Part shown: piece after piece, positions 3,906-55,303 of the stretch
How the letters are laid out: every line of letters begins with the position of its first letter
Position numbering within the stretch: the first letter of the stretch is position 1
Source of the DNA: Cetorhinus maximus
Lineage: Eukaryota
Direction of reading: 5' to 3'
Assembly: GCF_964194155.1 (NCBI RefSeq)
Contig: NC_135897.1
Span: 48,360,001-48,424,000, forward strand
DNA: 64,000 bases
Notes under the pieces: generated by a model
What the model was told of the DNA's origin: nothing
What the model saw: only the letters and a program-made list of their open reading frames with translations
Databases searched by the model: none
Translations under genes and position numbers: made by a program

Positions 3906-5943
3906 TAGTAGTTTTACTTCTTTCGCTTGTTTTCCCTTTTCTTTTTCTGAGCCTCATCTTCACATCTCTAATTTTATCTCTTCTTAATATGTATGTGAAA
4001 GAATATCCTGAAGACTACCTGTCATGTATTGTGACAAACAATGTCCATTCTTCTCACATTGGTAATATTCATAGAATATTGGATACCTCAGAATCCTGCT
4101 TCATTGAACTCTATCTAAAACCTTTGGCATAAAGCAGCTCATTGAATCTCATACTTGCAGTCATCAGGCGCTTACAAGTCATAACTGTCTTCTTGTACTT
4201 CATGTTCAGAAGGGATATTGCATCTATCCAATAATTTTCCTTTCCTTAAGATCATTATTACAAGGATAATGGTTGGTGCCACATGAATCCTCAATTGTCA
4301 CAGAGAGGCAAGATTTGAATCAATATAGTTTTCCACATAGTACCTCTCAACCAAACAATAATATAAATGCAGCTTCTCCTGGATCCACTGATTTCACAGA
4401 CACTTGAAGATTCAAATGGGTCTATCCCTGGACAGCAAGTTAACACCACAAAGAATGTAAGTATGAACTATCTCACAGGAAGATTAGGACAGAGTAATTT
4501 CTTTAAATCAGACAAAAAAGAAAATTTTCCCCAAATATTCTCAAGATGTTGTGCTCCTTCTGTTGTAATTCAGGTCTTATGCCTTATTCTTTAAGTGTGA
4601 CTGTTTCCCTGCCAAAGTTTTGGTGCCAATCTCAGGCACCGATTTTGTGTTGTCTAGCACCATGCTTGTACAATATTCAGCATTATTTCCGCTCAGTGCT
4701 GTCCCTGTTAGGAAGCTTTAAAGAAATCACTGAGTATTCAACCTCTGTAAAATGTTTCATGTTGCTGACTGACTTGTAACAGAGCTTAGGAGCTTTCCTT
4801 GAACTCTTGAGCTATGCATCAGCTCACACAATATGCTGATTGTTGTACTTGGTTATTAGATCCCAATCAATTCTTTCGTTAATACTGCCATTTATGGATT
4901 CACTTAATGGGACTGTTTTATGATAGGGTAATTTGAAATTTGTGTGTGAATTGATATAATTTTCCTAATAGGAAGCATGTGCCAAAAAGGATGTTCTAAA
5001 ATATATGTCATACGACCTGTCATTCAATGAACAAAAAACATCTCAATATAGCAACCAGAATTAGTTATTCTATTTCACCTGCACACCCAGCAGTCGTTGT
5101 TTCTGCCAGCAGTGACTAAACATGAGCCATGCATGTTTAATGTTACTACATTAAGTTATTTATTTTAGATTGATTTTATGTTTTAATGCCAAAAATTGCA
5201 AGACCATCACTGATAATAACAACCATTGGTAGCAACGTTGATTTGATGAAACAATGTGGAAATTTTACACTGATGAGTGAATGCATGGCACATTCCAAAA
5301 GTCTCGAGTCCTGTTCTGATTTCCCTGGCTGAAGGAATCACTAATTGAAGACTTCTGTAATTCCGCTGGGTGGCACATACTGAATGATTGAGATGCTGAA
5401 CTGAACAGTATGATTCAGTCAGCCCATATCGCAGAATCTTTCACACACTCCCAGCAGGCCTACTGTTATATACCTACTGCTTTGATATATTGCTCCATTA
5501 TTTAACAGTCTGAGAATAATTTAAACTTTGTTTATTAATTTGTGGCCCAAATATATTGAAAAAACTGACACACACACAAACACATCTACCTTACACATTG
5601 ATTACTGTGCACTGTGTCACATAAACTATTGCCTTCCACAAGGCTGAGTTTGGTGATGCCACTTCCCAAAATGTATTTGCACTTTGAAGTCAAAGCCAGC
5701 AACGTCCAGCCAACCACCTGCAGCAAGGATGGAGAAAGGAAAAACAAGTCCTGTCTTTCAGAAATATGTGCAATTGCTATTAAAACATATGAAAGAAAGC
5801 TTTTTGATGTGGGAGATGGGCAGAGCATTTTGAAAGATGAAATGTGTTAATAGTATGCTAGTACCAGTACAGATGGTGCAGAAATTTTGGATGCCAAAAT
5901 GTCAGAAGTCTATTTATATTTCTCCCTTGTTGAAACTATGCTG

Positions 5944-5984
5944 CAGTTCTGCCGAAGGGCCATGGAGGCTCGAAACGTTAACTG
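5944..5984 (+). ncRNA. Minimal type I hammerhead ribozyme motif in 5' pLTR (A6C core variant)
   Basis: cagtt-CTGCCGA-a-gggcc-atgga-ggctc-GAAAC-GTT-aactg. Stem I is cagtt/aactg, stem II is gggcc/ggctc, and stem III is the loopless ACGT palindrome. HHRs in PLE pLTRs are established. Confidence 0.75.
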
Positions 5985-6132
5985 ATTTCTTCTCCGCCGA
6001 TGCTGCCAGACTTGCTGAGTTTTTCCAGGTAATTCTGTTTTTGTTTTGTTTTGGATTTCCAGCATCCGCAGTAGCTTTTAGCTTTTTGTTTTTATCTTTG
6101 TGTTTGATTGACTGCCACCTCTCTTCAAAAAA

Positions 6133-8886
6133 ATGCCCTCTTGGAAGAAGTATGGCTCTGTCCTCCGACAGGATTTCCGACTGTCTCTTCTGCCCTGCTC
6201 ACCTTCATTGCTTTCCATTTCTCTCCTGGTGTTTGACAAGGTGTTTACTAAAACCCGCTTTCACAGCCATATCTCCTATCTCAGTGACTGTCTCCGTCTC
6301 CGACTCACCCCACGTGGATTTCAACTGAAATTCCATCCCTCTTGTTTCGAACCCACCCAGGATTACAGGTATCTCCGGGACATAAAACGTTTCTCGGACT
6401 GCTGTTCCTGTTGCATTCTGAGATCCACACTCAGTGCCATGCGCCGCCATATGAACACACTCGACCTCTCCCTCCAGCAGCACCGCCGCACCCTTTTTCA
6501 AAGCTGCCCGTGCCCCCAGTTTCATTTTATTCTTCACCTCATCCGTCGCCTCAACAAGAAACTTTTTCTCTTTCTCTCAAGTGCTAAGGAACGCAAGCTC
6601 CAACAACTCATCGACTCCAACACCCATCTGGGACCCTCCACCCCTGCTTGTCCCTCCGTCCTCACCCCATCTTCCAATCCCAGCCCCAGCCGCGTATTCA
6701 CTATACCCCCTGACCTTCCCCTCCCCGATGCTGAACGTTCAGTGCTCAACAAAGGACTTAGTTTCATACCCTTACGCCCTCATCTCAATGAATTTCGGGC
6801 TCGGCATGATGCTGAACTCTTCTTCCGCCGTCTCCGTCTCCGTGCTCACTTCTTTGGGCAGGAGTCCTCTCCCCGTTCAACGGATCCTTTTACCCACCTC
6901 CAATATTCTCCCTCCACTTGGACCCCTCCCTCTGGATTCTTACCTTCTCTTGATCTTTTCATTGAGAACTGTCGGCGTGACATTAGCCGTCTCAATTTCT
7001 CTGCTCCTCTCACCCATTCTAATCTGTCTCTCTCTGAACTCACTGCACTCCGTTCTCTCAGGTCCAACCCCAACATTGTCATCAAACCCGCTGACAAGGG
7101 TGGTACTGTTGTTGTCTGGTGCATTGACCTCTACCTCGCGGAGGCTGAGCGTCAACTCGCAGACGTTTCCTCCTACCTCTCCCTGGACCATGACCCCACC
7201 ACAGAACATCAAGCCATTGTTTCCAGGACTGTCACTGACCTCATCTCCTCTGGAGATCTTCCTCCCACAGCTTCCAACTTGATAGTCGCCCAACCTCGGA
7301 CGGCCCGCTTCTACCTCCTACCCAAAATCCACAAACAGAACTGTCCTGGCAGACCGATCGTGTCAGCCTGTTCCTGCCCCACGGAACTCATTTCTCGTTA
7401 TCTTGACTCCCTTCTCTCTCCCCTTGTCCAGTCCCTTCCCACCTACATCCGTGATTCCTCTGACACCTTACGTCACATCAACAATTTCCAGTTCCCTGGC
7501 CCCAACCGCTTCCTCTTCACCATGGATGTCCAATCCCTCTACACCTCCATCCCCCACCAGGATGGTCTGAGGGCCCTTAGCTTCTTCCTTGAACAGAGGC
7601 CCCAACAATCCCCATCCACCACTACTCTCCTCCGTCTGGCTGAACTTGTTCTCACACTGAACAATTTCTCCTTTAACTCCTCTCACTTCCTTCAAATAAA
7701 AGGTGTGGCTATGGGTACCCACATGGGCCCCAGCTATGCCTGTCTCTTTATGGGGTATGTGGAACATTCCTTGTTCCAGTCCTACTCCGGCCCCCTCCCA
7801 CAACTCTTTCTCCGGTACATCGATGATTACTTCGGTGCTGCTTCATGCTCTCGTCGGGACCTGGAAAAATTTATTAATTTTGCTTCCAATCTCCACCCCT
7901 CCATCATCTTCACATGGTCCATCTCTGACACTTCTCTTCCCTTCCTTGACCTCTCTGCCTCAATTTCTGATGATAGACTGTCCACCAATATCCATTACAA
8001 GCCTACCGACTCCCACAGCTACCTCGACTACAGCTCCTCACACCCCGCTTCCTGTAAAGACTCCATCCCATTCTCTCAGTTCCTTCGCCTCCGTCGCATC
8101 TGTTCTGATGACGCTACCTTCAAAAACAGCTCCTCTGACATGTCCTCCTTCTTCCTTAACCGAGGTTTTCCATCCACGGTCGTTGACAGGGCCCTCAACC
8201 GTGTCCGGCCCATATCCCGCGCATCCTCCCTCACGCCTTCTCCTCCTTCCCAGAAACATGATAGGGTCCCCCTTGTCCTCACTTATCACCCCACCAGCCT
8301 CCGCATTCAAAGGATCATCCTCCGCCATTTCCGCCAACTCCAGCATGATGCCACCACCAAACACATCTTCCCTTCACCCCCCTTGACGGCATTCCGTAGG
8401 GATCGTTCCCTCCGGGACACCCTGGTCCACTCCTCCATCACCCCCTACTCCTCAACCCCCACTTATGGCACCTCCCCATGCCCACGCAGAAGATGCAACA
8501 CCTGCCCCTTCACTTCCTCTCTCCTCACCGTCCAAGGGCCCAAACACTCCTTTCAAGTGAAGCAGCATTTCACTTGCATTTCCCCTAACTTAGTCTACTG
8601 CATTCGTTGCTCCCAATGCGGTCTCCTCTACATTGGAGAGACCAAACGCAAACTGGGCGACCGTTTTGCGGAACACCTGCGGTCTGTCCGCAAGAAAGAC
8701 CCAAACCTCCCTGTCGCTTGCCATTTTAACACTCCACCCTGTTCTCTTGCCAACGTGTCTGTCCTTGGCTTGCTGCATTGTTCCAGTGAAGCCCAACGCA
8801 AACTGGAGGAACAGCACCTCATCTTCCGACTAGGCACTTTACAGCCCTCTGGGCTGAATATTGAATTCAACAACTTCAGATCTTAA
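6133..8886 (+). CDS. PLE reverse transcriptase + GIY-YIG endonuclease (917 aa, uninterrupted)
   Basis: Motifs IKPADKGG, YLLPKIHK, PGRPIVS, MDVQSLYT, GVAMG and RYIDD (RT). A Cys-rich linker CPRRRCNTC is characteristic of the Neptune group. LVYCIRCSQCGLLYIGETKRKLGDRFAEH is the GIY-YIG domain. Confidence 0.96.
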   Translation: MPSWKKYGSVLRQDFRLSLLPCSPSLLSISLLVFDKVFTKTRFHSHISYLSDCLRLRLTPRGFQLKFHPSCFEPTQDYRYLRDIKRFSDCCSCCILRSTLSAMRRHMNTLDLSLQQHRRTLFQSCPCPQFHFILHLIRRLNKKLFLFLSSAKERKLQQLIDSNTHLGPSTPACPSVLTPSSNPSPSRVFTIPPDLPLPDAERSVLNKGLSFIPLRPHLNEFRARHDAELFFRRLRLRAHFFGQESSPRSTDPFTHLQYSPSTWTPPSGFLPSLDLFIENCRRDISRLNFSAPLTHSNLSLSELTALRSLRSNPNIVIKPADKGGTVVVWCIDLYLAEAERQLADVSSYLSLDHDPTTEHQAIVSRTVTDLISSGDLPPTASNLIVAQPRTARFYLLPKIHKQNCPGRPIVSACSCPTELISRYLDSLLSPLVQSLPTYIRDSSDTLRHINNFQFPGPNRFLFTMDVQSLYTSIPHQDGLRALSFFLEQRPQQSPSTTTLLRLAELVLTLNNFSFNSSHFLQIKGVAMGTHMGPSYACLFMGYVEHSLFQSYSGPLPQLFLRYIDDYFGAASCSRRDLEKFINFASNLHPSIIFTWSISDTSLPFLDLSASISDDRLSTNIHYKPTDSHSYLDYSSSHPASCKDSIPFSQFLRLRRICSDDATFKNSSSDMSSFFLNRGFPSTVVDRALNRVRPISRASSLTPSPPSQKHDRVPLVLTYHPTSLRIQRIILRHFRQLQHDATTKHIFPSPPLTAFRRDRSLRDTLVHSSITPYSSTPTYGTSPCPRRRCNTCPFTSSLLTVQGPKHSFQVKQHFTCISPNLVYCIRCSQCGLLYIGETKRKLGDRFAEHLRSVRKKDPNLPVACHFNTPPCSLANVSVLGLLHCSSEAQRKLEEQHLIFRLGTLQPSGLNIEFNNFRS

Positions 8887-9248
8887 ACTCCCCCTCCCCC
8901 CATCCCCACCCCATTTCTTTTCCCCCCCCACCCACTTTTTTTTCAATAATTTATATAGATTCTTCTTTCCCCACCTATTTCCATTATTTTTAAATCTAAA
9001 ACTAAAACCTTTAGTCTTTCCACCCCACCCCCACTAGAGCTGTACTTTGAATATCCTGTTTTCCATTCTTAATTAGCACTTTTCTCAGACAAAGACCACC
9101 ACCTTCAACACCTCTTTGACCCTTTTGTCTGTGACATCTTTGGATTATCTGCTCACACCACACCCTCAATGTGTCTCTTCACCCACCCCCCCCCACCCCC
9201 CCACCACCTTAAACCAATTTATATTTCTCCCTTGTTGAAACTATGCTG

Positions 9249-9289
9249 CAGTTCTGCCGAAGGGCCATGGAGGCTCGAAACGTTAACTG
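9249..9289 (+). ncRNA. Minimal type I hammerhead ribozyme motif in 3' pLTR
   Basis: Identical to 5944-5984. Confidence 0.75.
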
Positions 9290-9446
9290 ATTTCTTCTCT
9301 GCTGATGCTGCCAGACTTGCTGAGTTTTTCCAGGTAATTCTGTTTTTGTTTTGTTTTGGATTTCCAGCATCCGCAGTAGCTTTTTGTTTTTATCTTTGTG
9401 TCAGAAGTCTAAGTGTTTTAACGAGCGGCTGTCTTTCGGTCCAGAC

Positions 9447-10442
9447 AATGTTAAACCCCCAGTGCACTGCTGCAGGAATATACCAATGTTAAATCCAGTG
9501 TACCGTTGGAGGAATATACCAATATTAAACCCAGTGTACTACTGGGGCATTATGCCCAATGTTAAACCCAGTGCACTATTGGAGGAATATACCAATGTTA
9601 AACACAGTGCACTGCTGGAGGAATATACCAATGTTAAACCCAATGCACTGCTGGAGGAATATATCAATGTTAAACCCAGTGCACTGCTGGAGGAATATAT
9701 GAATGTTAAACCTAATGCATTATGGAGGAATATACCTAAAGTTAGACCTAGCACACTACTGGAGGAATATACCAATGTTAAGCCCAGTGCACTGCTGAAG
9801 GAATATACCACTGTTAAACTCAGTGCACTACTGGAGGAATATACCCAATGTTAAACCCAGTGCACTACTGGAGGAATATACCCAATGTTAAACCCAGTGC
9901 ACTGCTGGAGGAATATACCAATGTTAAACCCAGTGCACTGCTGGAGGAATATATCAATGTTAAACCTAAAGCACTATGGAGGAATATACCCAAAGTTAAA
10001 CCTAGCACACGACTGGAGGAATATACCAATGTTAAACCCAGTGCACTGCTGCTTCATTATACCCAATGTTAAGATAAAAGCAAAATACTGCAGATGCTGG
10101 AAATCTGAAATAAAAACAGAAAATGCTGCAAATGCTGGAAAAACTCAGCAGGTCTGACATCACCCTGGAGAGAGAAACACAGCTAATATTTTGAGTCCGT
10201 ATGACTCTTCTTTAGCTCTGAAGAAGTCATACGGACTCAAAACTTTAGCTCTATTTCTCTCTCCACAAAAGCTGTCAGACCTGCAGAGTTTTTCCTGCAT
10301 TTTCTGTTTTTATACCCAATGTTAAACCCAGTGCACTGCTGGAGGAATATACCCAATGTTAAATCCAGTGCACTACTGCAGCATTATACCCAAGGTTAAA
10401 CCCAGTGCACTGCTGGAGGAATATACCAATGTTAAACCCAGT
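9447..10442. repeat. 36-37 bp minisatellite (~21 units), interrupted by a PLE-derived insertion
   Basis: Head-to-tail unit AATGTTAAACCCAGTGCACTGCTGGAGGAATATACC with internal palindrome CAGTGCACTG and no spacers. Confidence 0.95.
10073..10309. mobile_element. Fold-back Penelope-derived element inserted in the minisatellite
   Basis: Inverted pLTR arms of ~80 bp centred near 10215. Flanking repeat ttatacccaatgttaa at 10057-10072 and 10310-10325 is TSD-like, though it is also array sequence. Degenerate HHR motif ctgaagaagtcatacggactcaaaac. Confidence 0.85.
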
Positions 10443-10448
10443 GATGCA

Positions 10449-12678
10449 GAATGTACTGTGGGTGGGGGACTTCAATGTCCATCACCAAGAGTGACTCGGT
10501 AGCACCACTAATGACCGAGCTGGCCGTGTCCTAAAGGACATAGTTGCTAGACTGGGTCTGTGGCAGGTGGTGAGGAAACCAACAAGAGGGAAAATCATAC
10601 TTGACCTCATCCTCACCATCCTGACTGCTGCAGATGCATCTGTCCATGACAGTATCAGTAGGAGTGACCACCTCACAGTCATTGTGGAGATGAAGTCCCA
10701 CCTTCACATTGAGGATATCCTTCAGTGTGTTGGGTGGCATTACCACCGTGCTAAATGGGGTAAATTTTGAACAGATCTAGCAACTCAAGACTAGGCATCC
10801 ATGAGGCACTATGGGCCATCAGCAGCAGAATTGTACTCGAACAATATCTGTAATCTTATGGTCCGACATATTCCCCACTCTACCATTACCATCAAACCAG
10901 GGGACCAACACTGGTTCAATTAAGAATGCAGGAGGGCATGCCAGGAGCAGCACCAGGCATACCTAAAAATGAGGTGTCAACCTGGTGAAGCTATAACACA
11001 GGACTACTTGCATGTCAAACAGCATAAGCAGCAAGTGATAGGCAGAGCTAAGTGATCCCACAACCAAAGGATCAGATCTAAGCTCTGCAGTCTTGCCACT
11101 TCCAGTCATGAATGGTGGTGGACAATTAAATAACTCACTGGAGGAGGAGGTTCCACAAATATTCCCATCCACAATGATGGGGGAGCTCAGCACATCAGTG
11201 CATAAGATAAGACTGAAGCATTTGCTACAATCTTCAGCCATTAGTGCCAAGTGCACGATCCATCTTGGCCTCCTCCGGAGGTCCCCAGCATCACAGATGC
11301 CAGTCTTCAGCCAATTCAATTCATTCCACGTGATAGCAAGAAACGACTGACGGCACTGGATAGTGGAAAGGCTATTGGGCCTGACAATATTCCAGCAATA
11401 GTACTGAAGACTTGTGCTCCAGAACTTGCCACACCCCTAACCTGACCTCATTTCAGCCTTGGTTCAAACATGGGACAAAAGATCTGAACTCCTGAGGTGA
11501 GGCGAGAGTGACTGCCCTTGACATCAAGGCCACATTTGACAGAGCATGGCATCAAGGAGCCCTAACAAAACTTGAGTCAATGGGAATCGGGGAAAACTCT
11601 GTTGGTTGGGGGTCATACCTAGCACAAAGGAAGATGGTTGTGGTTGTTGGAGGTCAGTCATCTCAGCTCCAGGACATCACTGCAGGAGTTCCTCAGGATA
11701 GTGTCCTCGACCCAACCGTCTTCAGCTGCTTCATCAATGACCTTTCATCCATCATACGAGTGGGGATTTTCGCTGATTACTGCACAACGTTCAGCACCAT
11801 TCGCGACTCCTCAAATACTGAAGCAGTCCATTTCCAAATCCAGCAAGACCTGGACAATATCCAGGCTTGGACTGACAAGTGGCAAGTAACATTCGCGCCA
11901 CACAAGTGTCAGGCAAAGGCCATCTCCAACAAGAGCGAATCTAACCATCGTCCCTTGACGTTTAATGGCATGACCATCACTGAATCCCCCACTATCAACA
12001 TCCTGGGGGTTACCAGTGATCAGAAACTGAACTGGACTAGCCATATAAATATCGTGGCTACAAGAGCAGGTCAGAGGCTAGGAATCCTGTGATGAGTAAT
12101 ACACCTCCTGACTCCCCAAAGCCCTTCCACCATCTACAAGGCACAAGTCAAGAGTGTGATGGAATACTTCCCATTTGCCTGGATGAGTGCAGCTCCCACA
12201 ACACTCAAGAAGCTTGACACCATCCAGGACAAAGTAGCCCGATTGATTGGCATTGGCACTACATTCACTAACGTTCAATCCCTCACCACTGATGCACAGT
12301 AGCAGCAGTGTGTACCATCTACAAGATGCATTGAAATGAATTCACGAAAGCTCCTTTGGCAGCACTTTCCAAACCCATGACCACTACCATCTAGAAGGGC
12401 AAGGGCAGCAGACAGATGGGGACACCTCCACCTGGAAGTTCCCCTCCAAGTCACTCACCATCCTGACTTGGAAATATATCACCTTTCCTTCACAGTCGCT
12501 GGGTCAAAACTGTGGAACTCCCTTCCTAACAGCACTGTGGGTGTACCTACACCACATGGACTGCAGCGGTTCAAGAAGGAAGCTCGCACCACCTTCTCAA
12601 GGACAACTGGGAAGGGCAATAAATGCTGGCCCAGCCAGCGAATGAATGGCCCACATCCCGTGAATGAATAAATAAAAA
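10449..12678 (+). mobile_element. Decayed APE-RT LINE (CR1/Jockey group, clade uncertain), internally deleted
   Basis: Endonuclease-like VGDFNVHH, GPDNIP, ALDIKATFDRAWH, GVPQDSVL and FADY, with multiple stops and frameshifts. The 3' tail cccacatcccgtgaatgaataaa is shared with other copies. Confidence 0.9.
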
Positions 12679-13125: not shown

Positions 13126-13219
13126 GTAAGTTCTTATAGTAATATCCAACTCATTCAGAGTGAGGGTGTACACACTTCTCATCCCTGCCACAACAATAGG
13201 TAGAATATACAGACTTTAT

Positions 13220-15517
13220 TATAAAGGCAAAATACTGCAGATGCTGGAAATCTGAAACAAAAACAAAAAGTGCTGGAAATATTCAGCGGCTTGACAGCAT
13301 CTACGGAGAGAAAGACAGAGTTAACGTTTCGAGTCCATATGGCTCTTCTTCGGAACTAAAGAGAAGTAAAGATATGGTAAAATATATACTGCGTAAGGGG
13401 GGTGGGACAGGTGAAGTTGGATAGAAGGCCAGTGATAGGTGGAGGCAAAGGAGAGATTGCAAAAGATGTCATAAACAAAAGATCGAAGGGGTGTTAATGG
13501 TGGTGATACTGGCTAAAGGAGGTGCTAATGGTGACATAAAGAGTAGAAAGCATAATAAGCAAGTGACAGATGGCCCTAGTGGGGGTTGCGGGAGGGGACG
13601 GTGGTAGGAAAAAAGATCGACATAGGCTAAAAGGTGGGGGTAAAGCAATGAATAAAAATGGAAATAAATTTTTTTTAAAAATAATAAAAATAGGTGGAAA
13701 ATATATACAAGTTAAAAAATAAATATTTGAAAAACGGGTGAGGATGGAGGAGAGTTGGTCTGAAGTTGTGGAACTCAATGTTAAGTCCGGAAGGCTGTAA
13801 AGTGCCTAATCGGAAGATGAGGTACTGTTCCTCCAGTTTGTGTTGAGCTTCACTGGAACATTGCAGCAGGCCAAGGACGGACATATGGGCATGAGAGCAG
13901 GATGGTGTGCTGAAGTGGCAAGCGACAGGAAAGTCTGGGTCATGTTGCAAACAGGCCGAAGATGTTCTGCAAATCAGTCACCCAGTCTGAATTTGGTCTC
14001 TCCAATATAGGGGAGACTGCATTGGGAGCAGCGAATGCAGTAGACCAAATTGAGGGAAGTGCAAGTGACTGCTTCAGTTGAAAGGAGTGTTTGGGCCCTT
14101 GGACAGTGAGGAGGGGGGAAGTAAAGGGGCAGGTGTTGCAATTGTATGGGAAGGTGCCATGGGAGGGGGTTGAGGTGATGGAGGAGTGGACCAGGGTGTC
14201 CCAGAGGGAACGGTCCCTACGGAATTCCGATTTGGGGGGGGGGGGAGGTGGTGAAGGGAAGATGTGTTTGGTGGTGGCATCATGCTGGAAATGGCGGAGG
14301 ATGATCCTTTGAATGCGGAGGCTGGTGGGGTGAAAAGTGAGGACAAGGGGGACCCTATCATGGTTCTGAGAGGGAGAGGAAAGTATGAGGGCAGAGGCGT
14401 GGGAGTTGGGTTGGACACGGTTGAGTGACCTGTCACCAACCGTGGTTGGGAAACCTCGGTTAAGGAAGACGTCAGACATGTTTTGGAAAGCAGCATCATC
14501 AGAACAGATACGATGGAGGCAAAGGAACTGAGAGAATGGGATGGAGTCTTTACACGAAGCAGGGTGTGAGGAGTTGTAATCGAGGTAGGTGTGGGAGTTG
14601 GTGGGCTTGTAATGAATATTGGTGGACAGTCTATCATGAGAAATTGAGACAGAGAGGTCAAGGAAGGGAAGGGAAGCGTCAGAGATGGACCATGTGAAAG
14701 TGGTGGAGGGGTGGAAATTGGAAGCAAAATTAATACATTTTTCCAGGTCCAGACGAGAGCATGAAGCAGCACTGAAACAGTCATCGATGTACCGGAGAAA
14801 AAGTTGTGGGAGGGGGCCTGAGTAGAACTGGAACAAGGAATGTTCCACATATCCCATAAAGAGACAGGCATAACTGGGGCCCATGCGGGTACCCATAGCC
14901 ACACTTTTTATTTGGAGGAAGTGAGACGAGTTTAAGGAGAAATTGTTCAGTGAGAGAACAAGTTCAGCCAGACAGAGGAGTGGTGGTGGATGGGGTTTGT
15001 TTGGGCCTCTGTTCAAGGAAGAAGCTAAGGGCCCTCAGACCATCCTGGTGGGGGATGGAGGTGTAGAGGGATTGGATGTCCATGGTGAAGAGGAGGCAGT
15101 TGCGACCAGGGAACTGGAAATTTTTGATATGATGTAGGGCATCAGAGGAATCATGGATGTAGGTGGGAAGAGACTGGACAAGGGGAGAGAGAAGGGAGTC
15201 AAGATGGGAAGAAATGAGTTCTGCTTTCTACTCTTAATGTCACCATTAGCACCTCCTTTAACCCGTGCCACCACCATCAACGCGCCTTCGATCTTTTGTT
15301 TATGACATCTTTTGCAATCTCTCCTTTGCCTCCACCCATCACTGGCCTTTTATCCAGCTTCACCTGTGCCACCCCCCTTAAATAGTATATATTTCACCAT
15401 ATTTTTACTTCCCTTTAGTTCTGAAGTAGAGTCATTCGGACTCAAAAGTTAACTCTGTCTTTCTCTCCACAGACGCTGTCAGACCTGCTGAGTTTTTTCA
15501 GCACGTTTTGTTTTTGG
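13220..15517 (-). mobile_element. 5'-truncated, frameshifted Neptune-type PLE with inverted pLTR
   Basis: ORF pieces 13940-15016 and 13675-13950 closely match the 917-aa protein. Segment ~15222-15516 is an inverted copy of ~13258-13552. A 12-bp TSD tacagactttat lies at 13208-13219 and 15518-15529. HHR-like motifs at 13319-13357 (-) and 15417-15454 (+). Confidence 0.93.
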
Positions 15518-15751
15518 TACAGACTTTATGATTACTATATAATGATAGTTGCAGTTTTATCAAATATGTTAACTTTTTTGACAACAGTTGTGGCTAAAAA
15601 CACAAAACGTTATTTGCAGAACTGGAAAAGTCCAGAAGCCTTATTGCTTGTATCAAAAGAGAAATTAATAAATGTTGGAACTTGTCTGCATCAATGGAAA
15701 CATTCAGTAACCTTGTAATTTTGATGTTGTGAATCATTTTTAATAACGTAG

Positions 15752-15900: not shown

Positions 15901-16554
15901 GGCCAGAATTTTGCCATTGGCGAGCAGGGGGGCGGGGCCCACGGGACATGTAAAATGACGCAGGATGACATTGGGCGGAACCCCCGACGTCATCCCGCCC
16001 CATTTAAATTTTCAGGAAGGCGGGGGCGCAGCAAAATCAGCTGCGGGCCCACCGACCTGTCAATGGCCAATTGAGGCCATTGACAGGATCATTTAACCAA
16101 TTAAAGGACCTGCCCGTCCAATCTTAAGGTTGGCGGGCAGGCCAGGAGCTCCGGCATAAAATAGAGAAAACATGAAACCTCATCCAGCAGCGGGATGAGG
16201 TTTCATGCAGGGATTTAAAAATGTTAATAAAGTTATTCTGTAAATTATGAATATGTCCCAACTCTTGTAATATTTTTCAAACTCCAGGTGATCTCCCTGA
16301 GGCTGCACTTAGCCTCAGGGAGATGTGCGCTCTTTCGTGCGCATGCGCGAAAGAGCACACTTTCGCTATTAGGGAATCCCCTCCGCCCGCACAGGGAGTG
16401 CATAGCGCTTCCCGCTGGGCGTCATGCTGGGTGGGCCTTAATTGGCCTGCCTACGTAAAATGGCGGCGGGGCCCGCTTCGCTGGCAGGGATCGGCTCCCC
16501 GCCCGCTGGAGATTGGGTCAGGCCCACCTGCCCAACAGGCAGAAAATTCTGCCC
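15901..16554 (+). mobile_element. PIF/Harbinger-type MITE, family A
   Basis: TIR ggccagaatttt...aaaattctgccc, flanks atg/acg (3-bp TSD with one CpG-type change), and the internal hairpins shared by the family. Confidence 0.88.
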
Positions 16555-16993
16555 ACGATGTCAATTAAACGTTCATGTAGTAGACAAGGGTGTCATATGT
16601 TCCAACTTATTTTTAACCTTTCAGCAGTACTGACCTGTTTAACAACAAAACTCAAATCACACACACAATGATGAAGTTCAATGGCTTTGAAGAGTAACAT
16701 CAGCATAAGCTCTAGTGATATAAATAACTCATGAATGTTCCAATATTGACAAAAATGGCCCATACCTGTACAGCATAGCAACAGTATTCCGTTTCTTCTG
16801 TGAAACCTTCCCAGGTGAGCCAGCCAATGAATCAGAATACATTTCTCCCAATAAAGAAATGCAACATATTCTAAAGAGGGAAAACCAAAAGAAAAATTAA
16901 CAGGACTGGCAAGTAGCTATTTAAGCCAGAGTAATAGTCTACAAAATGTTGTGATAATTTCTTAGAACCAAATTGTTTCATTGTGATACATGT

Positions 16994-18287: not shown

Positions 18288-19030
18288 AAAATATTTGATA
18301 AGGTGCCATATCAAAGGTTATTGTGGAAAATAAAAGCTCATAGTGTAGGGGGTAACATATTGGCATGGATAGACGATTGGCTAGCTAACAGGAAACAGAG
18401 AGTAGGCATAAATGGGTCTTTTTCTGGTTGGCAGGATGTTACAAGTGGTGTGCCATAAGGATCAGTGCTGGGGCCTCAACTTATAACAATTTATATAAAT
18501 GACTTGGATGAAGGGACCGAAGGAATGGTTTCTAAATTTGCTGATGACACAAAGATAGGTAGGAAAGCAACTTGTGAAGAGGACATAAGGCGGCTACAAA
18601 GTGACATAGATAGGTTAAGTGAGTTGGCAAAGATCTGGCAAATGGAGCATAATGTGGGCAAATGTGAAATTGTCCAATTTGGTAGGAAGAATAAAAAAGA
18701 AGCATTTTATCTAAATGGTGAGAGATTGCAGAGCCTGAGGGATCTGGGTGTCCTAGTTTATGCATCACAAAAGGCCAGTATGCAGGTACAGCAAGTAACT
18801 AGGAAAGCTAATGGAATGTTATGTTTATTGCAAGAGGAATTGCATATAAAAATAGAGAGGTTATGTTTCAGTTTTACAGACACTGGTGAAACCACATCTG
18901 GAGTACTGTGTGCAGTATTGCTCTCCTTATTTAAGGAAGGATTTAAATGCATTAGAAGCAGTTCAGAGAAGGTTTACTAGACTAATACCAGGAATGGGCA
19001 GATTGTCTTATGAGAAAAGATTGCACAGGC
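18288..19030 (+). mobile_element. CR1 LINE, RT portion (continues at 21543)
   Basis: FDKVPY, VTSGVP*, KFADDTKIG and KPHLEYCVQ, with stops and frameshifts. Confidence 0.92.
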
Positions 19031-30196: not shown

Positions 30197-30746
30197 ACAG
30201 GTCGGAATCTGTTTAGTTGTGCAAATCAGAGTCCTACGCATGTTGTCCTATTTCTCCCAAAGTTGAAAGACCTAACCGATTCCTCCATGCCTTACTAATA
30301 TCTTCTGACTATAAGCTGGTCCATTCTCGTCTAATGCCACCTGCCCCACCACCCCCTCCCCCACCCCCACCCCCACCCCAAAAAGACTAACTAGCCAACC
30401 AAGTGAACAGATTACAGTTACTGCAGCTTGCTTGTAAAATGTAAATAAGGCCTGAACCTGAAAGTGGGTCAGGCCTCCTGACTGCTGCATTGGGCAATTG
30501 CTAGAGTTGCGTTGTAGAATATTGCTGCCATTTGTCACCCAAACCAAAAGTTCTTTCCCAGAACCCTGATCTTAGCCAGACCAATGATGAGAGCAGTGTA
30601 ATCAGCCTTATATCATTAATTTAAAAAGTAGAAAACAGTGAATTCCAACCTCTGAGCACTATCTTATGACTGCTGGCTGGAAAGTGCATGCAGATGTACT
30701 TCCTAGCACAATAAAGACACACTCAGAACAATCACAAGAATGTTTA

Positions 30747-31288
30747 ACAAAAACAGAATTACCTGGAAAAACTCAGCAGGTCTGGCAGCATTGGCGGAGA
30801 AGAAAAGAGTTGACGTTTTGAGTCCTCATGACCCTTCAGCAGAACTGAGTAAAGTTAGGAGAGGCGTGAAATATAAGCTGGTTTAAGGTGTGGGGGTGGG
30901 GGTGGGGGGAGAGAAGTTGAGGGGGGGGTGGTTGTAGGGACAAGCAAGCAGTGATAGGAACAGATAATCAAAAGATGTCACAGACAAAAGGAACAAAGGG
31001 GTGTTGAAGGTGGTGATATTATCTAAGAAAATGTGCTAATTAAGAATGGATGGCAGGACACTCAAGGTACAGCTCTAGTGGGGTGGAAAGACTAACAGGG
31101 TATTACAGTTATAGATTTAAAAATAATGGAAATAGTTGGGAAAAGAAAAATCTATATAAATTATTGGAAAAAACAAAAGGGAGGGGGAAGAAACAGAAAG
31201 GGGGTGGGGATGGGGGAGGGAGTTTAAGATCTAAAGTTGTTGAATTCAATATTCAGCCCGGAAGGCTGTAAAGTGCCTAGTAAAATGC
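30747..31288 (-). mobile_element. 5'-truncated PLE (ORF end + pLTR)
   Basis: Encodes LGTLQPSGLNIEFNNFRS*. A 12-bp TSD caagaatgttta lies at 30735-30746 and 31289-31300. HHR-like motif at 30808-30846. Confidence 0.88.
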
Positions 31289-33094: not shown

Positions 33095-34813
33095 TCACTG
33101 TAATTCCTGACGCCAACCAGTCAGGTGCCAGGAAGGGTTGCACATGAGCACTCAGCTTGAACTGCGGCTGCCAGCATGAGTGGTTTTCTTCATCACTGAC
33201 ATCATTGGCTCATCAGCCAATGCCAGTACTGGTTTGCGCCTGTATGAATGGCAACATCGCTCACTCAGCCACTCTCTCTGGCGCACAGATCACTCCGCCT
33301 CCGCCCCTTGCTGCCTGCAGCTCAGGAGCCATCCTGTCCGCTGCTGGCCTGCTCCCTCTGATTCCCTGAGCTCTCGTCGCCCCTCTCCTCTACCCTCACC
33401 AATGCTCTCCCACACCCTCACTATCCTTCTCCTGCACCCTCTCCTGTGCCCTCCCCTGTGCCCTCACTGCCCCTCTCCCACACCCTCACCGCCCTCTCCC
33501 ATGCCCACGCTGCCCCTGCCTGCACCCTCGCTGCCTCTGTCCCAAGCCCTCTCCTGTACCCTCACTACCCATTTCCCACACCATCGCGCCCATGCTGCCT
33601 ATCTCCCACGCCCTTGCTGCCCCTCTCTCGTGCCCTAACCACCCCTCTCCCGCTCCCTTGCCGTGTGGTGTTCCAGTCTCCAGCCTTTATGAGCCACGGT
33701 CAATCATCTCCGCTTCGCTCCCCTGGGACTCAGCACATCGCTCTCTAACCAAACAGATATGCTCCTTCCCTCCTCCTTTCTCTGTTGCACTAATGGTATG
33801 CAGAAAGGGACTGTGCAGTAATGATATGTTCCTCAACAGTGCACTGGGTTTAACATTGCCTGAGTAAGAAATACATCCACTGATTAAAACACTTGGGGCA
33901 GAATTTTGCCCTTGATGGGCAGGCGGGCCCCACCAGCTTGGTGGCGGGCGGGCAGCTGATTGCCACCATTGAAACGGGCCCCGCCGCCATTTTGAGTGGG
34001 CGGGCCAATTAAGGCCCACCCAGTGGGCCGCCCGACAGGAAGCGCTATGCGCGGGAGGGGAGGGATTCCCCAACTGTCAAAGCACACTTTTGCGCATGCA
34101 CGTGAAAGAGCGCATATCTCCCTGAGACTAAGTGCTGTCTCAGGGAGAGCGCTGAAAGTTTTATAAACCTAAAAAATAGAAAAATAAAAAAAATTATTAG
34201 CATGTCCCCCTCATGTGACAATGTCACACGAGATGGGACATGTTAATAAATATCACATAAACTTTATTAAAGTTTTTTTAAAACAGACATGAAACCTCAT
34301 CCCGCCGGTGGGTGAGGTTTCATGTTTTTTCAGAAGCCCGCTGGGTCTCCTGGCCTGCCCGCCGGCCTTAAGGTTGGATGGGCAGGGCCTTTAGTTGGCT
34401 TAATTATCCTGTCAATGGCCTCAATGGGCCATTGACAGGTCAGCGGGCGGACAGCTGATTGCGCTGTCCACCCGCCTTCCTGAATATTTAAATGGGGCGG
34501 GATGACGTCGGGGGTTTCCCCCAACATCATCCTGCGTCATTTTCGCGTCGGCAAGCAGGTCCCACCCACAGCTCGCCGACGGAAAAATTCTGCCCTTGGA
34601 CTTCTGACGTATGGTAGCCAAAATTTCAGCACAACATGTAACAAGGTACTAGCACACATCACTGAAACTGTTGAAAGAAAGAACTTGTTTTTCCTAGTTA
34701 TTCCCATCTTTGATACAGGCAGCCGGGACCTCACTGGCTTTGATGTCATGGGCAGTACAACTACATGTGCAGGAAGTGCACCCTCTGCAGTTGCAACATC
34801 ACCAAACTCAGCC
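33095..34813 (-). repeat. Inverted, diverged paralogue of the 5640-13080 region (minus its later insertions)
   Basis: Collinear shared anchors: aaggctgagtttggtgatg, aggaaaaacaagt, tgctagtacc, gtcagaagtcYaagtgttttaa, caatgttaaacccagtgcactg, tactgcacagYccct, gatgtgctgagWccca, ggagcagRccagc, cagcaagRggcggag, ccaatgaYgtca. Confidence 0.8.
33896..34595 (-). mobile_element. Harbinger-type MITE, family A
   Basis: TIR gggcagaatttt / aaaattctgccc; TSD ttg at 33893-33895 and 34596-34598. Confidence 0.92.
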
Positions 34814-36033: not shown

Positions 36034-37935
36034 CACAGAATCACAGTGCAGGAGGCCCTTTGGCCCATCGAGTCTGCACTGACACGTGAGAAACACCTGA
36101 CCTACCTACCTAATCCCATTTACCAGCACTTGGCCCATAGCCTTGAATGTTATGACGTGCCAAGTGCTCATCCAGGTACTTTTTAAAGGATGTGAGGCAA
36201 CCCGCCTGCACCACCCTCCCAGGCAGTGCATTCCAGACTGTCACCACCCTCTGGGTAAAAAAGATTTTCCTCACATCCCCCCTAAACCTCCTGCCCCTCA
36301 CCTTGAACTTATGCCCCTTGTGACTGACCCTTCAAATAAGGGGAACAGCTGCTCCCTATCCACCCTGTCCATGCCCCTCATAATCTTGTACACCTCGATC
36401 AGGTCTTCTCTGCTCCAACGAAAACAACCCAAGTCTATCCAACCTCTCTTCATAACTTAAATGTTTCATCCTAGGCAACATCCTGGTGAATCTCCTCTGC
36501 ACCCCATCCGGTGCAATCACATCCTTCCTATAATGTGGCGACCAGAACTGCACACAGTACTCCAGCTGTGGCCTCACCAAGGTTCTATACAACTCCAATA
36601 TGACCTCCCTACTTTTGTAATCTATGTCTTGACTGATAAAGGCAAGTGTCCCATATGCTTTTTTCACCACCCCACTAACATGCCCCTCCGCCTTCAGAGA
36701 TCGATGGACACACATGCCAAGGTCCCTTTGTTCCTCAGAACTTCCTAGTGCCATGCCATTCATTGAATACTTCCTTGTCAAGTTACTCCTTCCAAAGTGT
36801 ATCACCTCACACTTTTCAGGGTTAAATTCCATCTGCCACTTATCTGTCCATTTGACCATCCCGTCTATATCTTCCTGTAGCCCAAGACACTCAACCTTCC
36901 TGTTAACCACCCGGCCAATCTTTGTGCCATCCGCAAACTTACTAATCCTACCCCCACAAAGTCATCTATGTCGGTTATATAAATGAAGAATAATAGGGGA
37001 CCGAGCACAGAACCCTGTGGTACGCCACTGGACACTGGCTTCCAGTCACTAAAGCATCCTTCTGTCATCACCCTCTGCCTCCTACAACTAAGCCAATTTT
37101 GAGTCCACCTTATCAAATTACCCTGTATCCCATGTGCCTTTGCCTTCTTTATAAGTCTCCCATGTGGGACCTTGTCAAAGGCTTTGCTCAAATCCATATA
37201 AACTACATCAATTGCACTACCCTCATCTACACACCTGGTCACCTCCTCAAAAAATTCAATCAAATTTGTTAGGCATGACCTCCCTCTGACAAAGCCATGC
37301 TGACTATCCCTGATCAAACCTTGCCTCTCCAAGTGGAGGTAGATACTCTCCTTCAGAAATTTCTCCAATAGTTTCCCTACCACTGTCGTGAGACTCACTG
37401 GCCTGTAGTTCCCTGGCTTATCTCTACAACCCTTCTTAAATAGCGGAACCACATTAGCTGTTCTCCAGTTCTCTGGCACCTCCCCAGTGGCCAGAGAGGA
37501 ATTAAAAATTTGAGTCAGAGCCCCTGCAATCTCCTCCCTTGCCTCTCTCAGCAGTCTGGGACACAAATCATACGGACCCGGAGATTTGTCCACTTTTAAG
37601 CCTGCCAACACCTCCAATACCTTGTCGCTCCCTATATCAATTTGCTTAAGAACCTCGCAGTCTCTCTCCCCAAGTTCGATACCTTCGTCCTCATTCTCTT
37701 GGGTGAAGACGGACGTGAAGTATTCATTCAACGCTCTAGCGATGTCCTCTGGCTCCACCCATAGATTTCCCCCTTGGTCCCTTTTGGGCCCTTTCCCTGG
37801 TTATCCTCTTCCCATTGATATACTTATAGAATATCTTGGGATTTTCCCTACTTTTACCAGCCAGAGCTTTCTCATATCCCCTCCTTGCTCTCCTAATTGC
37901 TTTCTTAAGCTCCACCCTGCACTGTCTGTACTCCA
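36034..37935 (-). mobile_element. CR1 LINE, 5'-truncated and frameshifted
   Basis: KSPGP, PGNYRPVSLT, QHGFVRGRSCLTNL, DLSKAFDKVPH, GVPQGSVLGP and RPQLEYCVQFW. Confidence 0.95.
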
Positions 37936-39013: not shown

Positions 39014-39684
39014 ATTGTTGTTTGTCCTGTTCACGTAGGTATGTCATGATGTTGTGACCTGTGCATATCTGATATTAATCTTTAATTTCATTGGCTGGTC
39101 AATTATACATTGAACTGCTTTTAAAGGACTTTTAAAAAGCAAGCAAAGGCACTAACTTAAGATGGCTGTCACAAGTCACCTGATGGCTAGTATTACAAAT
39201 TGGCCATTTCTGGAAGTTTCCAATGTCAATTACGATTAAGAGATGTACTGACAACCTCCTATGGAATTTCACACCTGCTGATGTCAAGAACTATTTCAAA
39301 AGGTTTACTGAAATTGTACTAGACCTCACCATTTGCATTTCTATAAAGCTACCTCTCAAGCGGATACAGAGAGTCTACTGGGAGAATAACTATATGGAAG
39401 GTGTTCTTCTTATCTCATCAAGATGGATGTTGGGTCATTCAGGAGTTAATGGCTGGGACATTATGTGGGTGAGGTGGGTAGGCCATAAAACAATAGCTAT
39501 GGTCGGTCCGGGGAGAGAGGTCATGTGACTAGAATAACCACTTTTAAATGTTTTTTATTACAACACCCAAGCTGCTAAGCAAGGGTCTGGGAGAAATCTG
39601 CCAAATGGAGCAGTAACACCATTTCTCTCTCTCAAGTTCAAGACCCTATCTCTATTATAGTTTGAAATCCAGCACAGAGACAGA

Positions 39685-40401
39685 GGGCTGAATTTTGCCG
39701 TCAGCGAGCAGGGGGCGGGGCCCACTTGCCGACGAGAAAATGACGCAGGATGATATCGAGGGGAACCCCCGACGTCATCCCGCCCCATTTAAACCTTCAG
39801 GAAGGTGGGGGCACAGTGAGATCAGCTGTCCGCCCGCCGACCTGTCAATGGCCAATTGAAGCCATTGACAGGATAATTAGAACAATTAAAGGACCTGCCC
39901 GTCTAACCTTAAGGTTGGCGGGCAGGCCAGGGGCCCCAGCGGGCTTCTGAAAAAACATGAAACCTCATCCACCGGCGGGATGAGGTTTCATGTAGGGTTT
40001 TAAAAAATTTATTAAAGTTTCAGTGAAATTTATTAACATGTCCCATCTCATGTGACATTGTCACATGAGGGGGACATGTTAAGGACCTTTTTATTTTTCT
40101 GTTTTTAAAGTTTATACAACTGTCAGCGATCTCCCTGAGGCAGCACCTAGCCTCAGGGAGATGTGTGCTCTTTCACGCGCATGTGTGAAATAGCGCACTC
40201 TCGCTTTTGGGGAATCCCCCCCCGCCCCCCCACCCGCACAGAAAGTGCATAGCGCTTCCTGCCGGACATCACGCTGGGCGGGCCTTAATTGGCCCGCCTA
40301 CTTAAAATAGCAGCGGGGCCCTCTTCTCCGGCGGGGATCGGCTCCCTGCCCGCCGGCGATTGGGTTGGGCCCGTCCGCCCGACAGGCAGAAAATTCTGCC
40401 C
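39685..40401 (+). mobile_element. Harbinger-type MITE, family A
   Basis: TIR gggctgaatttt / aaaattctgccc; TSD aga. Confidence 0.92.
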
Positions 40402-41814
40402 AGAGAATTTTCAATCGAAAAGAACATCAGATGCAAAAATCATTAACTTTTGGAAAAGATGGATTATGTTAAAATAAAAAGAATTTGCTTACATGGACTT
40501 CAACTCTGCTGAATTTTCAAGACCACCATGAAAAATTCTGCTTCAGTCACGGAAACCAGCAAAGGACACATAAACAGTGAACTCTCTATTTTTTACCTTT
40601 TAGGAGTGAATTTTAATTTGACCAAAAAGCAACCTCCTACTGTATAACTTGTTATTTTTGCATTTGCATATGTGTGTGTTGCGAAGATCAGGATGTCGGT
40701 TTACCTTTTTAATTATTTTTATATCTTTACCTGAGTGGGTTTTTAGTTCAATAACCCCTTAGTGCTTTAAACTCAAGGACACTTGTCAGGCTGGTTTCTC
40801 TGCAATCAGCACCTAAACGGTTAAGCACAGACATTGAATTAATACCTTCATCTTTATAAATTCACAAATAAAACCCTGTTATGGTCAGACCTGGAGTGGT
40901 AGAATAGGGAATCATTTCACCCCTCTTCCTCCTGTTCTATATCCTATATTTTTTTATATAAGGCTCCAGATCCCTGTAAAGGGTGGTGCACTGTTTCAGA
41001 TGCCTGATGACTATAATTTGCTGCTCGAAAGCCCACGAAAAGTCTGTGGACAGTTAGAAGCGTAATGAATGGAAAGTCCAATACTTTACCACTGCTGCTA
41101 TTTAAACTATGTTAATTCATGTTTCTCACTTCAAAATTATAGAATGCCATCTTTTGATTTGTCATGAATGAAATGCCTGCAAGCAATCAATGTGCAGTAT
41201 TATTACAATTGAGAAAGGCAGGAGGGGAGGCTTTACGCACAGCAATTAGTTCAAATTTCCAATCACTCAAAGACATACATCATCATAGAACCATAGCAGT
41301 TTACAACACACAAAAAGGTTATTCGTCTAATCATGTGGGTGCCGGATCTTTGCAAAGGCATTTCAAAACTAATTTAAGTGTCCTGCTTTTTCCGTCTAGC
41401 CATTAATCTTCCTCTGGTTCAAATATTTATCCAGTTTTCCTTTCAAGATGCTATAGTCTCTGCCTTAATAATTGTCTTTTGCAAAATAATCTATGATCCA
41501 TCTATCCTCTGCATGAAAACAATTTCCTAACTTTTCTTTTCACTCTCCTGGTGATAACTTTAAATTGATGACATTGTATCACAGCTTCCCCAACCAGAGG
41601 GAATAGTCCTTTCCTATTCATTGTATCAAAACTCTTCCTAATTTACAAAACCACTATTAAACCTTCTTTTAGCCTCATCCACTCCATTGGAATAATTCAG
41701 GAGTTGGGGTGTTCATCCTGAAGCCTAGTGGAAACTGGGTGGGTGGGGGGAGACGGGGCAACAGTTAAAATACCCTGGGTTATTTACCAAGGAACTATTT
41801 CTGATATTAACAAA

Positions 41815-42025
41815 AACAAAAATACCTGGAAAAACTCAGCAGGTCTGGCAGCATCTGCGGAGAGGAACACAGTTAACGTTTCGAGTCCGAATGACCCTTC
41901 AACAGAACTAAGTAAAAATAGAAGAGAGATGAAATCTAAGCTGGTTATAAACCAGATCTGCTGAGTTTTTCCAGGTATTTTTGTTTTTGTTTTGGATTTC
42001 TAGCATCCGCAGTTTTTTGCTTTTA
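41815..42025. mobile_element. Inverted-pLTR Penelope-derived mini-element
   Basis: A minus-oriented pLTR with HHR motif (41871-41909) is followed by a plus-oriented pLTR tail. Flanking repeat tctgatattaacaaa at 41800-41814 and 42026-42040. Confidence 0.85.
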
Positions 42026-45010: not shown

Positions 45011-45585
45011 TCTTTGTCCTCGATGGTGTCAAGTTTCTTGAGTGTTATTGGAGTTGCACTCATCCAGGCAAGTGGAGAGTATTCCATCACACTCCTGACT
45101 TGTGCCTTGTAGATGGTGGACAGGCTTTAGGGGGTCAGGAGGTGAATTACACACCACAGCGTTCCCTGCCTCTGACCTGCTCTTGTAGTCACAGTATTTA
45201 TATGGCTGGTGCAATTCAGTTTCTGGTCAAAGGTAAGCCCCAGGATGTTGATAGTAGGGGATTCAGCGTTGGTAATGCCATTTGATGTCAAGGGGCGATC
45301 GTGAGATTCTCTCTTGTTGGAGATGGTCATTGCCTGGCACTTATGTGGCACGAATGTTACTTGCCACTTATCAGTCGAAGCCTGAATGTTATCCAGGTCT
45401 TGCTGCATATGGACATGGACTGCTTTAGTATCTGAGGAGTCGCGAATAGTGCTGAACATTGTGCAATCATCAGCGAATATTCCCACTTCTGACCTTATGA
45501 TGGAGGAAAGGTCATTGATGAAGCAGCTGAAGATGGTTGGGCCAACGACACTACCCTGAGGAACTCTTGCAACTATGTCCCAGGA
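45011..45585 (-). mobile_element. LINE RT fragment (family of 10449-12678)
   Basis: VPQGSVVGPTIFSCFINDL...FADDCT. Confidence 0.9.
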
Positions 45586-46742
45586 CATATTCAATATATT
45601 ATATACGTTCTATATATCATGTTATATACCCTATATATTCTATCCTCTATATTGCATTCTCTATTTATTCACTTCACAATAAAGATCTTTGATGTTTTTG
45701 AGAAAAAATTTCCTTGAAGCTTCTCCCAGTCTGGTACCATAACTTCGATGGATATGAGAAGCATTGCTACACACGCTTACAGGGTTTCCATTGCACTTCT
45801 GGCAAAATGACAGCAGTAAAACATGAGAAACTGAGGAAATTTACTCATAAAATTTTCTTTAGGCAAATATGTTATTTAGAAATTATTGTCTGTCAGACAT
45901 TAAAAGACCAGATGAGGACAAGAGCCTAATTTTTTTCAAAATACAAGTGCTACTTATGTTGAAACAAGTATCATCTTCAAAAAAGCCAACAGTAAACTAT
46001 TTGCAGAATATTTATGACCAAGTTGTACAATTAATTTGATGTATGTTCTAGGATAGGGTCATTACCAGCACTAATATTGACTGACATAGGCAAAGAGAAG
46101 TTGATATACAACAGCACATTTATCGGCGGAGAACTAGAGCTTTTATTTTTGCCCTTGCTTGATATTTTCCTGAATTAGGCCCCTTTGAATTATATATGTT
46201 TTACTTGAATTGAAAATGATAAAAAGCTGACTGGTTCATCACTGCAATGTTCTCCTCATTATTATTATGCAGCCTATGGCGCTCCTGATTTTAACTCCAG
46301 TGATCAGGGCCTGGTGTGCTAAACTTCTGGCGCTGGATATTATCATAGATTAGGAACTGTTTTGGTGCAGGTTTGTCCTAAATTGATTATATTTTTCTCC
46401 AGCTACTTTTATGGTGTCATTTTGCGTCACCATAAAGAAGCATATGCCTAAACCAGGACTTAATAGTAATTAGTATAATTCTACTAATAAACAGATCTCC
46501 CACACTAATATTACTCATGTATCTATAAGTTCCTACAGGTTTCCTGAACAAAGAAAGCTGAAATCGAGAACAACATTTGTTACATGCTTGGATGAGATGT
46601 GGATAGTCAAAGGAAACTGTTTTGAATATTCCAATCCACATGAAACTTCTAAAAATAATTATCCTCAAAAGATAGAGGATTATTTATTCATTTAAATTTT
46701 TAAATATGCTCTAAAAAAATCAAAATAGTGCCTGAGTCAGAG

Positions 46743-55187: not shown

Positions 55188-55303
55188 AATATTTTTAAAC
55201 TTATTTGTGTTAAATAAGCAAAAGCAGAACACAAAAACAGCTACAATAGAATTGTAAATATGCAGAACAAGTGCACTCTGACCAGTGTTGCACCAGATCC
55301 CTT

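Follow-up and report, generated by a model that had tools for sequence, protein, structure and literature searches.

A minimal hammerhead motif with C at core position 6 in a young Penelope-like retrotransposon of Cetorhinus maximus: a likely slowed-down form of a known ribozyme

A 64,000-nucleotide stretch of the Cetorhinus maximus genome (NCBI RefSeq assembly GCF_964194155.1, contig NC_135897.1, positions 48,360,001 to 48,424,000 of the forward strand), referred to here as the window, contains two identical 41-nt copies of a minimal type I hammerhead motif on the plus strand. They are located at 5944-5984 and 9249-9289, 3305 nt apart, with predicted cut sites at 5979/5980 and 9284/9285. The initial annotation of a type I topology, a stem III consisting of ACGU and a C at position 6 in both copies was confirmed.

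The motif pair lies in an insertion flanked by a 12-bp target-site duplication (left copy 5900-5911, the first 3 bases of which also match the element tail; right copy 9399-9410). Inside, all on the plus strand, a 5' pseudo-LTR (5912-6103), starting 32 nt upstream of the hammerhead, and a 3' pseudo-LTR (9217-9401) enclose an uninterrupted open reading frame (ORF) of 917 amino acids (6133-8886). Relative to the 5' repeat, two CpG sites of the 3' repeat show C-to-T changes, and 7 nt are missing from it, a private loss. The ORF codes for a reverse transcriptase (RT) domain (Pfam RVT_1, 30 bits at a cutoff of 29.6, with a YIDD motif), a CX4CX2C linker of the sequence CPRRRCNTC, and a GIY-YIG-like endonuclease, the match of which (20.8 bits, E 5e-4) is just under the cutoff of 22.6. 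A single ORF with RT and C-terminal GIY-YIG between direct pseudo-LTRs, 3305 nt apart, corresponds to the layout of endonuclease-bearing (EN+) Penelope-like elements (PLEs). The end traits of this group were also identified, namely two 3' end zones (an optional tail) and inverted 5'-truncated partners, with 149 head-to-head junctions within the motif alone. The repeat shares 99-100% identity with each of its 40 best full-length matches in the genome. The element is a young endonuclease-bearing Penelope-like retrotransposon. An open frame of 924 codons between two repeats was identified in two C6 elements and in none of the older-class pairs examined, several of which are partial. The Neptune clade has been defined by a CX2-5CxxC linker between RT and endonuclease, and Nematis likewise carries a linker, while Penelope and Poseidon are reported to be linker-free (PMC8557442). 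By its linker, the element would be classified as Neptune-like.

Further members of the lineage and other repeats are present in the window. An older A6-class copy (CUGAAGA) with an inverted 5' repeat and a broken ORF, about 86% identical, is located on the minus strand at about 13200-15520. A C6/GUC-class stub with a mutated G12 was found at 30746-30847 (minus strand), and a U6-class stub at 41812-41990 with an intact motif at 41875-41905 on the minus strand. A tandem repeat array with units of 36-37 bp (9458-10079 and 10279-10443) starts about 50 nt past the right end of the element. A match to Rfam mir-577 at 10165-10267 (43.7 bits, threshold 100) was rejected, since the segment consists of two old repeat stubs from this family in head-to-head arrangement, which form a long hairpin. 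LINE-type RT fragments were identified at 11496-12092, 18459-18980, 36865-37800 and 45127-45609, a DDE transposase fragment (Pfam DDE_Tnp_4) at 61284-61862 on the minus strand, and members of a dispersed, GC-rich repeat family, which contain internal palindromes and occur in either orientation, at 15952-16555, 34249-34596, 39684-40411 and 54816-56924. Among 18 long frames scanned, a host gene was recognised in a single case, an exon of a class C GPCR, probably of a chemoreceptor gene (58763-59782, minus strand; Pfam 7tm_3, E 1e-74), about 49 kb from the element and on the other strand.

In the first copy of the motif, stem I is formed by 5 bp (5944-5948/5980-5984) and is followed by the core nucleotides C3 U4 G5 C6 C7 G8 A9 (5949-5955), with C6 at 5952. 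A single extra A at 5956, between A9 and G10.1, was absent from the initial annotation; an extra nucleotide at this place is typical for the minimal hammerheads of PLEs (PMC4209133). Stem II (5957-5961/5967-5971) contains 5 bp, one of them G-U, and a loop of 5 nt. It is followed by G12 A13 A14 (5972-5974), the palindrome ACGU (5975-5978) and U17 (5979; 9284 in the second copy). Compared with the canonical core consensus (C3 U4 G5 A6 N7 G8 A9, G12 A13 A14, A15.1-U16.1, H17), every position agrees except A6, which is C. Given a published natural exception at this position, the exchange lowers the designation as canonical, not that as hammerhead-like. The traits of PLE minimal hammerheads are all present: the palindrome ACGU without loop 3, the extra A5956 and the pair G10.1-C11.1 (G5957-C5971). 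At each of these positions, 90-99 of 100 copies agree.

With positions 6 and 7 left free, the core pattern has 3 matches in the 64-kb window as compared to 0 in 100 shuffled sequences, and 27,317 matches genome-wide as compared to 0 for the reversed pattern. The folding energy of the motif is unremarkable (z = -0.88), and an Rfam scan of 4000-11000 gave no hammerhead match up to E 10. Since the two repeats are parts of a single insertion within a single target duplication, their identical motifs do not count as independent evidence of conservation.

Two further features overlap with the motif. An ATG in loop II with a strong start context opens a 7-codon frame (5962-5985); it is present in the GUC and C6 subfamilies and missing from the older ones with an AUAC loop, and the frame could be an upstream ORF damping translation. 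In addition, a pyrimidine tract ending in YAG (5923-5946) runs directly into the 5' arm of stem I, its AG being kept in 98 of 100 copies, and a donor-like CAG/GT site is located downstream of the motif at 6028/6029 (region 6026-6035). Helix I marks the end of an intron in the Penelope element of Drosophila virilis (PMC4209133). Judged from the sequence, splicing at the YAG site would replace part of stem I. A joint at this possible acceptor was not seen in contigs assembled from putative RNA runs, 4 of them compared with 5800-9500 and 4 with 9195-9335 (6 distinct runs), nor did these contigs provide usable RNA ends.

To what extent C6 is a property of this locus or of the family can be read from the 3.99-Gb assembly. 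Among the 27,317 exact matches, U6 was found in 11,887 (44%), C6 in 9,935 (36%), A6 in 5,112 (19%) and, by subtraction, G6 in 383, so that non-A6 forms make up 81% in counts that favour young copies, undercount old A6 ones and do not include GUC or wobble variants. A second search was anchored outside the core, in the 5' part of a predicted downstream hairpin (5999-6067, plus strand) which is common to all subfamilies, and yielded 53,384 copies. In the first 100 of these, all from the first 4.8 Mb of one contig, position 6 is U in 53, C in 34, A in 9, G in 2 and a gap in 2. The other 12 core positions are 91-100% canonical in the same 100 copies, the two lowest being the CpG formed by C11.1 and G12, and position 17 is U or C in every copy. 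C6 is a trait of the lineage, and the non-A6 cores, which form the majority in the genome, likely arose in the master lineage. A point mutation after insertion at this locus is ruled out by the 9,935 C6 copies. The U6 form was also met in a loose-end consensus from a sequencing run of another organism, a weak observation with an agreement of 0.67.

A tree was calculated from the 3' part of the ORF for those 51 of the 245 motif-covering copies which have at least 380 nt of upstream ORF. It has the form of a ladder, with classes defined by positions 6, 7 and 17: AA copies are basal with long tips, followed by mixed AU and UU-GUU copies, then UU-GUC, and finally CC and CU, whose tips measure 0-1.7%. 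The AU and UU-GUU classes intermix in the tree, with synonymous differences at 0 of 111 sites. The median nearest-neighbour distance is 8.8% for AA, 6.0% for AU, 4.9% for UU-GUU, 3.9% for UU-GUC and 0.4% for CC, with A6 and CC copies deliberately oversampled, which lowers their values. From these sequences we infer that A6 is likely the oldest, U6 the intermediate and C6 the youngest subfamily state; the order is held as likely only, because the tree is midpoint-rooted without an outgroup, contains many weak nodes and is affected by the oversampling.

The remainder of the motif has changed in a restricted manner. Across the five non-A6 classes, two of which hold only 6 and 10 copies, 12 of the 41 positions differ: the class-defining positions 6, 7 and 17, three in loops, the two that form the outer stem I pair, two with wobble changes and the two of a double change in stem II from U-A to C-G. 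None of the 12 other core positions changed in these classes, as compared to 16 of 35 flank positions (Fisher p=0.004), a significance that rests on fast-changing flanks; within the motif, 9 changes fall among 38 positions, none in the core (p=0.019). Between the UU-GUU and CC classes, 12 of 138 4-fold synonymous ORF sites changed, and measured against these, 0 of 12 core changes is unremarkable (P=0.34). Across the 245 copies, pairing in stems I and II is kept through both covariation and wobble changes. Pair 10.4-11.4 is U-A in 160 copies and C-G in 73, which counts as one compensatory event and not 73, since the copies are related; pair 10.2-11.2 is A-U or G-U, and pair 2.1-1.1 is U-A or U-G. 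A constraint on the fold is probable, not proven, from this pattern.

What C6 would do to catalysis can be estimated from characterized ribozymes. The hammerhead of phage Bcep176 is a natural A6C variant and cleaves at under 0.1 per min (PMC3088659); its rate was reported as 0.004 per min in 1 mM Mg2+ as compared to 0.31 in 1 mM Mn2+, and an engineered A6C ribozyme prefers Mn2+ over Mg2+ by >10,000-fold (PMC7151607). A6C is slow yet not dead in the two hammerheads tested (PMC7151607, PMC3088659). In a full pairwise mutational scan, all changes in the U-turn gave low activity except a C-G swap (PMC9901934). The initial annotation had stated that minimal PLE hammerheads cleave as dimers, in agreement with the published view of the class, according to which their activity is low even with A6 and cleavage requires multimers (PMC4209133). 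For the PAc hammerhead, cleavage was observed only in the presence of protein, and the motif was dispensable for insertion in vitro; uncut RNA is described as the dominant substrate, with no RNA-seq ends at the cut site (PMC11167929).

In a folding model, the stems of the isolated 41-mer are formed at 86-100%. In the context of the whole repeat they are mostly unformed, with at most 6% for 5912-6103, and stem I is mostly low in repeat context for all classes tested. The modelled active dimer of the commonest C6 motif has an energy of -16.7 kcal/mol, as compared to -22.6 for two monomers and -26.4 for an inactive duplex; the double hammerhead can be drawn without a pseudoknot and is not the lowest-energy state in the model. 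By analogy with the tested variants, the motif likely represents a known ribozyme in slowed form, its cutting being either slow or gated by protein. The idea that C6 RNA is a mere substrate of A6 partners is not favoured: mixed dimers are possible on paper, but the C6 lineage retains its own enzyme half.

The ends of genomic copies give information on the RNA that was copied. Downstream of the cut site, 76 of 92 C6 copies end within 63-78 or 107-130 nt, corresponding to two zones on the plus strand at 6042-6057 (33 of 92) and 6086-6109 (43 of 92), and 12 of the 92 continue into the ORF. The zones are likely start sites of reverse transcription, the tail of the element; in PAc, two internal RT start sites match the genomic 3' ends (PMC11167929). 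Every copy ending in these zones was read across an unbroken junction, so that the template was uncut or re-ligated. The 5' ends of the first 97 of 100 C6 copies listed are at 5931-5946, shortly ahead of stem I or within it, in 22 cases, at 5900-5924 in 8 and within 5700-5899 in 14, with 53 copies being longer; ends near 5912-5919 are perhaps partly alignment artefacts, and copies starting inside the motif are invisible in this set. The cluster fits linear RNAs starting near stem I.

Copies starting exactly at the cut site were searched for as matches with a purine before 1.1. There were 73, of which 23 of 30 were scored by script as truncated, as compared to 41 matches at a control position 3 nt further, with 15 of 30 scored as such, including three duplicates. 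Extrapolation gives about 56 junctions at the cut site and about 20 at this one control position, a roughly 3-fold excess; a check by eye revealed one wrong call in each direction and microhomology blurring the junction in about half of the cut-site cases. The excess may reflect some cutting and copying of cut RNA. For head-to-head junctions, the cut site is no clear hot spot, with 5 of the first 50 of 149 (plus one with filler) as compared to 4 of 50 on the neighbouring and equally palindromic AACGTT, counted by eye. At five unlinked loci, an identical head-to-head junction lies 1-3 nt from the cut site, which would point either to recurrence of the event or to a small fold-back subfamily of non-autonomous type. 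The genomic footprint of cutting is weak, and the copying template is most likely uncut RNA.

We lean, by a modest degree, towards the following reading: the motif is a Penelope-like minimal hammerhead, position 6 of which likely went from A over U to C in the master lineage, with the fold likely still under selection and slow cutting predicted. The RNA would start just upstream of stem I and run through both repeats. Copying by the RT-endonuclease protein would begin 60-130 nt past the 3' cut site and would have to proceed through an unbroken motif. A cut at 9284 in linear RNA would part the RT start sites from the ORF, so that slow cutting would protect the template. Cleavage would need two motifs paired via ACGU with exchanged stem I strands, probably helped by the protein of the element, and may be a late trimming or disposal step. 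A weaker core would then be tolerated or favoured, and dimer-dependent, probably protein-assisted cutting would keep the remaining core under selection.

In an extended form of this reading, position 6 would be a tuning knob: the lineage would have been selected to weaken its hammerhead stepwise (A6, U6, C6), so that cutting occurs only on cue, by the protein of the element or another metal ion, and the linear template is protected. This is conceivable, and we consider it unlikely. If it were true, and if the change at position 6 were general in animals, attenuated and gated hammerheads would form an uncounted class missed by searches in which CUGA is fixed.

Alternatively, catalysis may have been lost altogether, leaving position 6 unconstrained, and the motif would be kept in shape and sequence as a binding site for the protein of the element or a host factor, or as a promoter- or splice-related sequence; the three states of position 6 within one lineage speak for this reading. 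Minimal PLE hammerheads are weak even with A6, and the A6C cost of >10,000-fold in Mg2+ as compared to Mn2+, in one ribozyme, points in this direction (PMC7151607), as does the spread of Naiad PLEs, which are reported to lack canonical hammerheads (PMC8557442). A second constraint could come from the AG that follows the pyrimidine tract within the 5' arm of stem I and is present in 98 of 100 copies. However, G8, G12, the C3-G8 pair, a non-G at position 17 and ACGU are all kept, which is what cutting and dimer formation require, and natural and engineered C6 hammerheads still cleave (PMC7151607, PMC3088659). We regard a loss of cutting as rather improbable.

According to the initial annotation, the C6 form could cut at both sites and release a unit-length RNA that might circularise; a circular RNA is a published hypothesis for these elements (PMC4209133). 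The two motifs of one transcript would pair and cut after 5979 and 9284, the 3305-nt piece would be ligated to a circular template, and copying around the circle would give the order repeat-ORF-repeat. The geometry fits, the insertion exceeding one unit (5912 to about 9400), a copying start 60-130 nt past the junction works on a circle as well, the RNA can include the 5' motif, to judge by the 5' ends near 5912-5946, and the excess of cut-site junctions (about 56 as compared to about 20) is in line with cutting. However, a C6 core would have to make two efficient cuts, and a circle offers no end upstream of stem I at which the 22 of 97 copies could have started. Head-to-head junctions at the cut site are no commoner than at AACGTT in the 50 listed for each by eye, microhomology is present at many cut-site junctions, and in PAc, uncut RNA was dominant with no ends reported at the site (PMC11167929). 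Differences between the repeats are uninformative for distinguishing circle and linear templates, since among 50 young copies the 7-nt difference occurs in this 3' copy alone, and a circle junction reads the same as the genomic repeat in sequence reads. With slow A6C cleavage in Mg2+, the PAc precedent and no clear genomic footprint of cutting, the proposed release of a circle is unsupported so far, and we hold it to be improbable. Least probable, and by our estimate very unlikely, is a relic decaying by drift, in which A6 was the first core letter lost with too little time for others: core invariance is indeed not significant against synonymous sites, but all 12 changes in 41 positions fall in loops, at 6, 7 and 17, in the outer pair of stem I, or keep pairing.

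As in the minimal hammerheads of metazoan PLEs, the motif is present in both repeats about 3.3 kb apart, with a stem I of 4-5 bp, an extra nucleotide between 9 and 10.1, a G10.1-C11.1 pair, a palindromic 15.2-16.2 segment without loop 3 and thousands of truncated copies; all 56 representatives in Fig. S3 of the report on these have A6, probably fixed in its search descriptor, whereas here 81% of the exact matches are non-A6 and the youngest subfamily is C6 (PMC4209133). The Bcep176 hammerhead shares C6 and an otherwise intact core (PMC3088659, PMC7151607), but it is a single phage motif cutting as one molecule, while the present family joins C6 to a dimer-only stem III and has it fixed in some 10,000 copies. 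PAc, a Poseidon element of Anolis, likewise has a minimal pLTR hammerhead with two end zones downstream of it; its start codon overlaps stem II, whereas the ORF here begins 149 nt after the motif (PMC11167929), and the CX4CX2C linker of the present element is reported to be lacking in Penelope and Poseidon (PMC8557442). Cleavage of PLE-associated small hammerheads as dimers via a very short stem III has been described (PMC6765202). No report of family-wide non-A6 PLE hammerheads was found in a literature search that drew on PMC6765202, PMC6155905 and bioRxiv 10.64898/2026.07.22.740005, and left out Repbase, Dfam and the paper of Lunse and coworkers. The hammerhead class is already known; its family-wide non-A6 form may be new. 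PLE-associated small hammerheads cutting as dimers are reportedly also the subject of that paper (Lunse, Weinberg, Breaker, RNA Biol 14:1499).

The role of hammerheads in Penelope-like elements is an open question (PMC4209133, PMC8557442, PMC11167929). In this genome, searches fixing CUGA would miss about four fifths of the motifs. Within one lineage, its A6, U6 and C6 motifs with near-identical stems form a natural series that is dated, so that the rate of cutting can be measured against amplification success.
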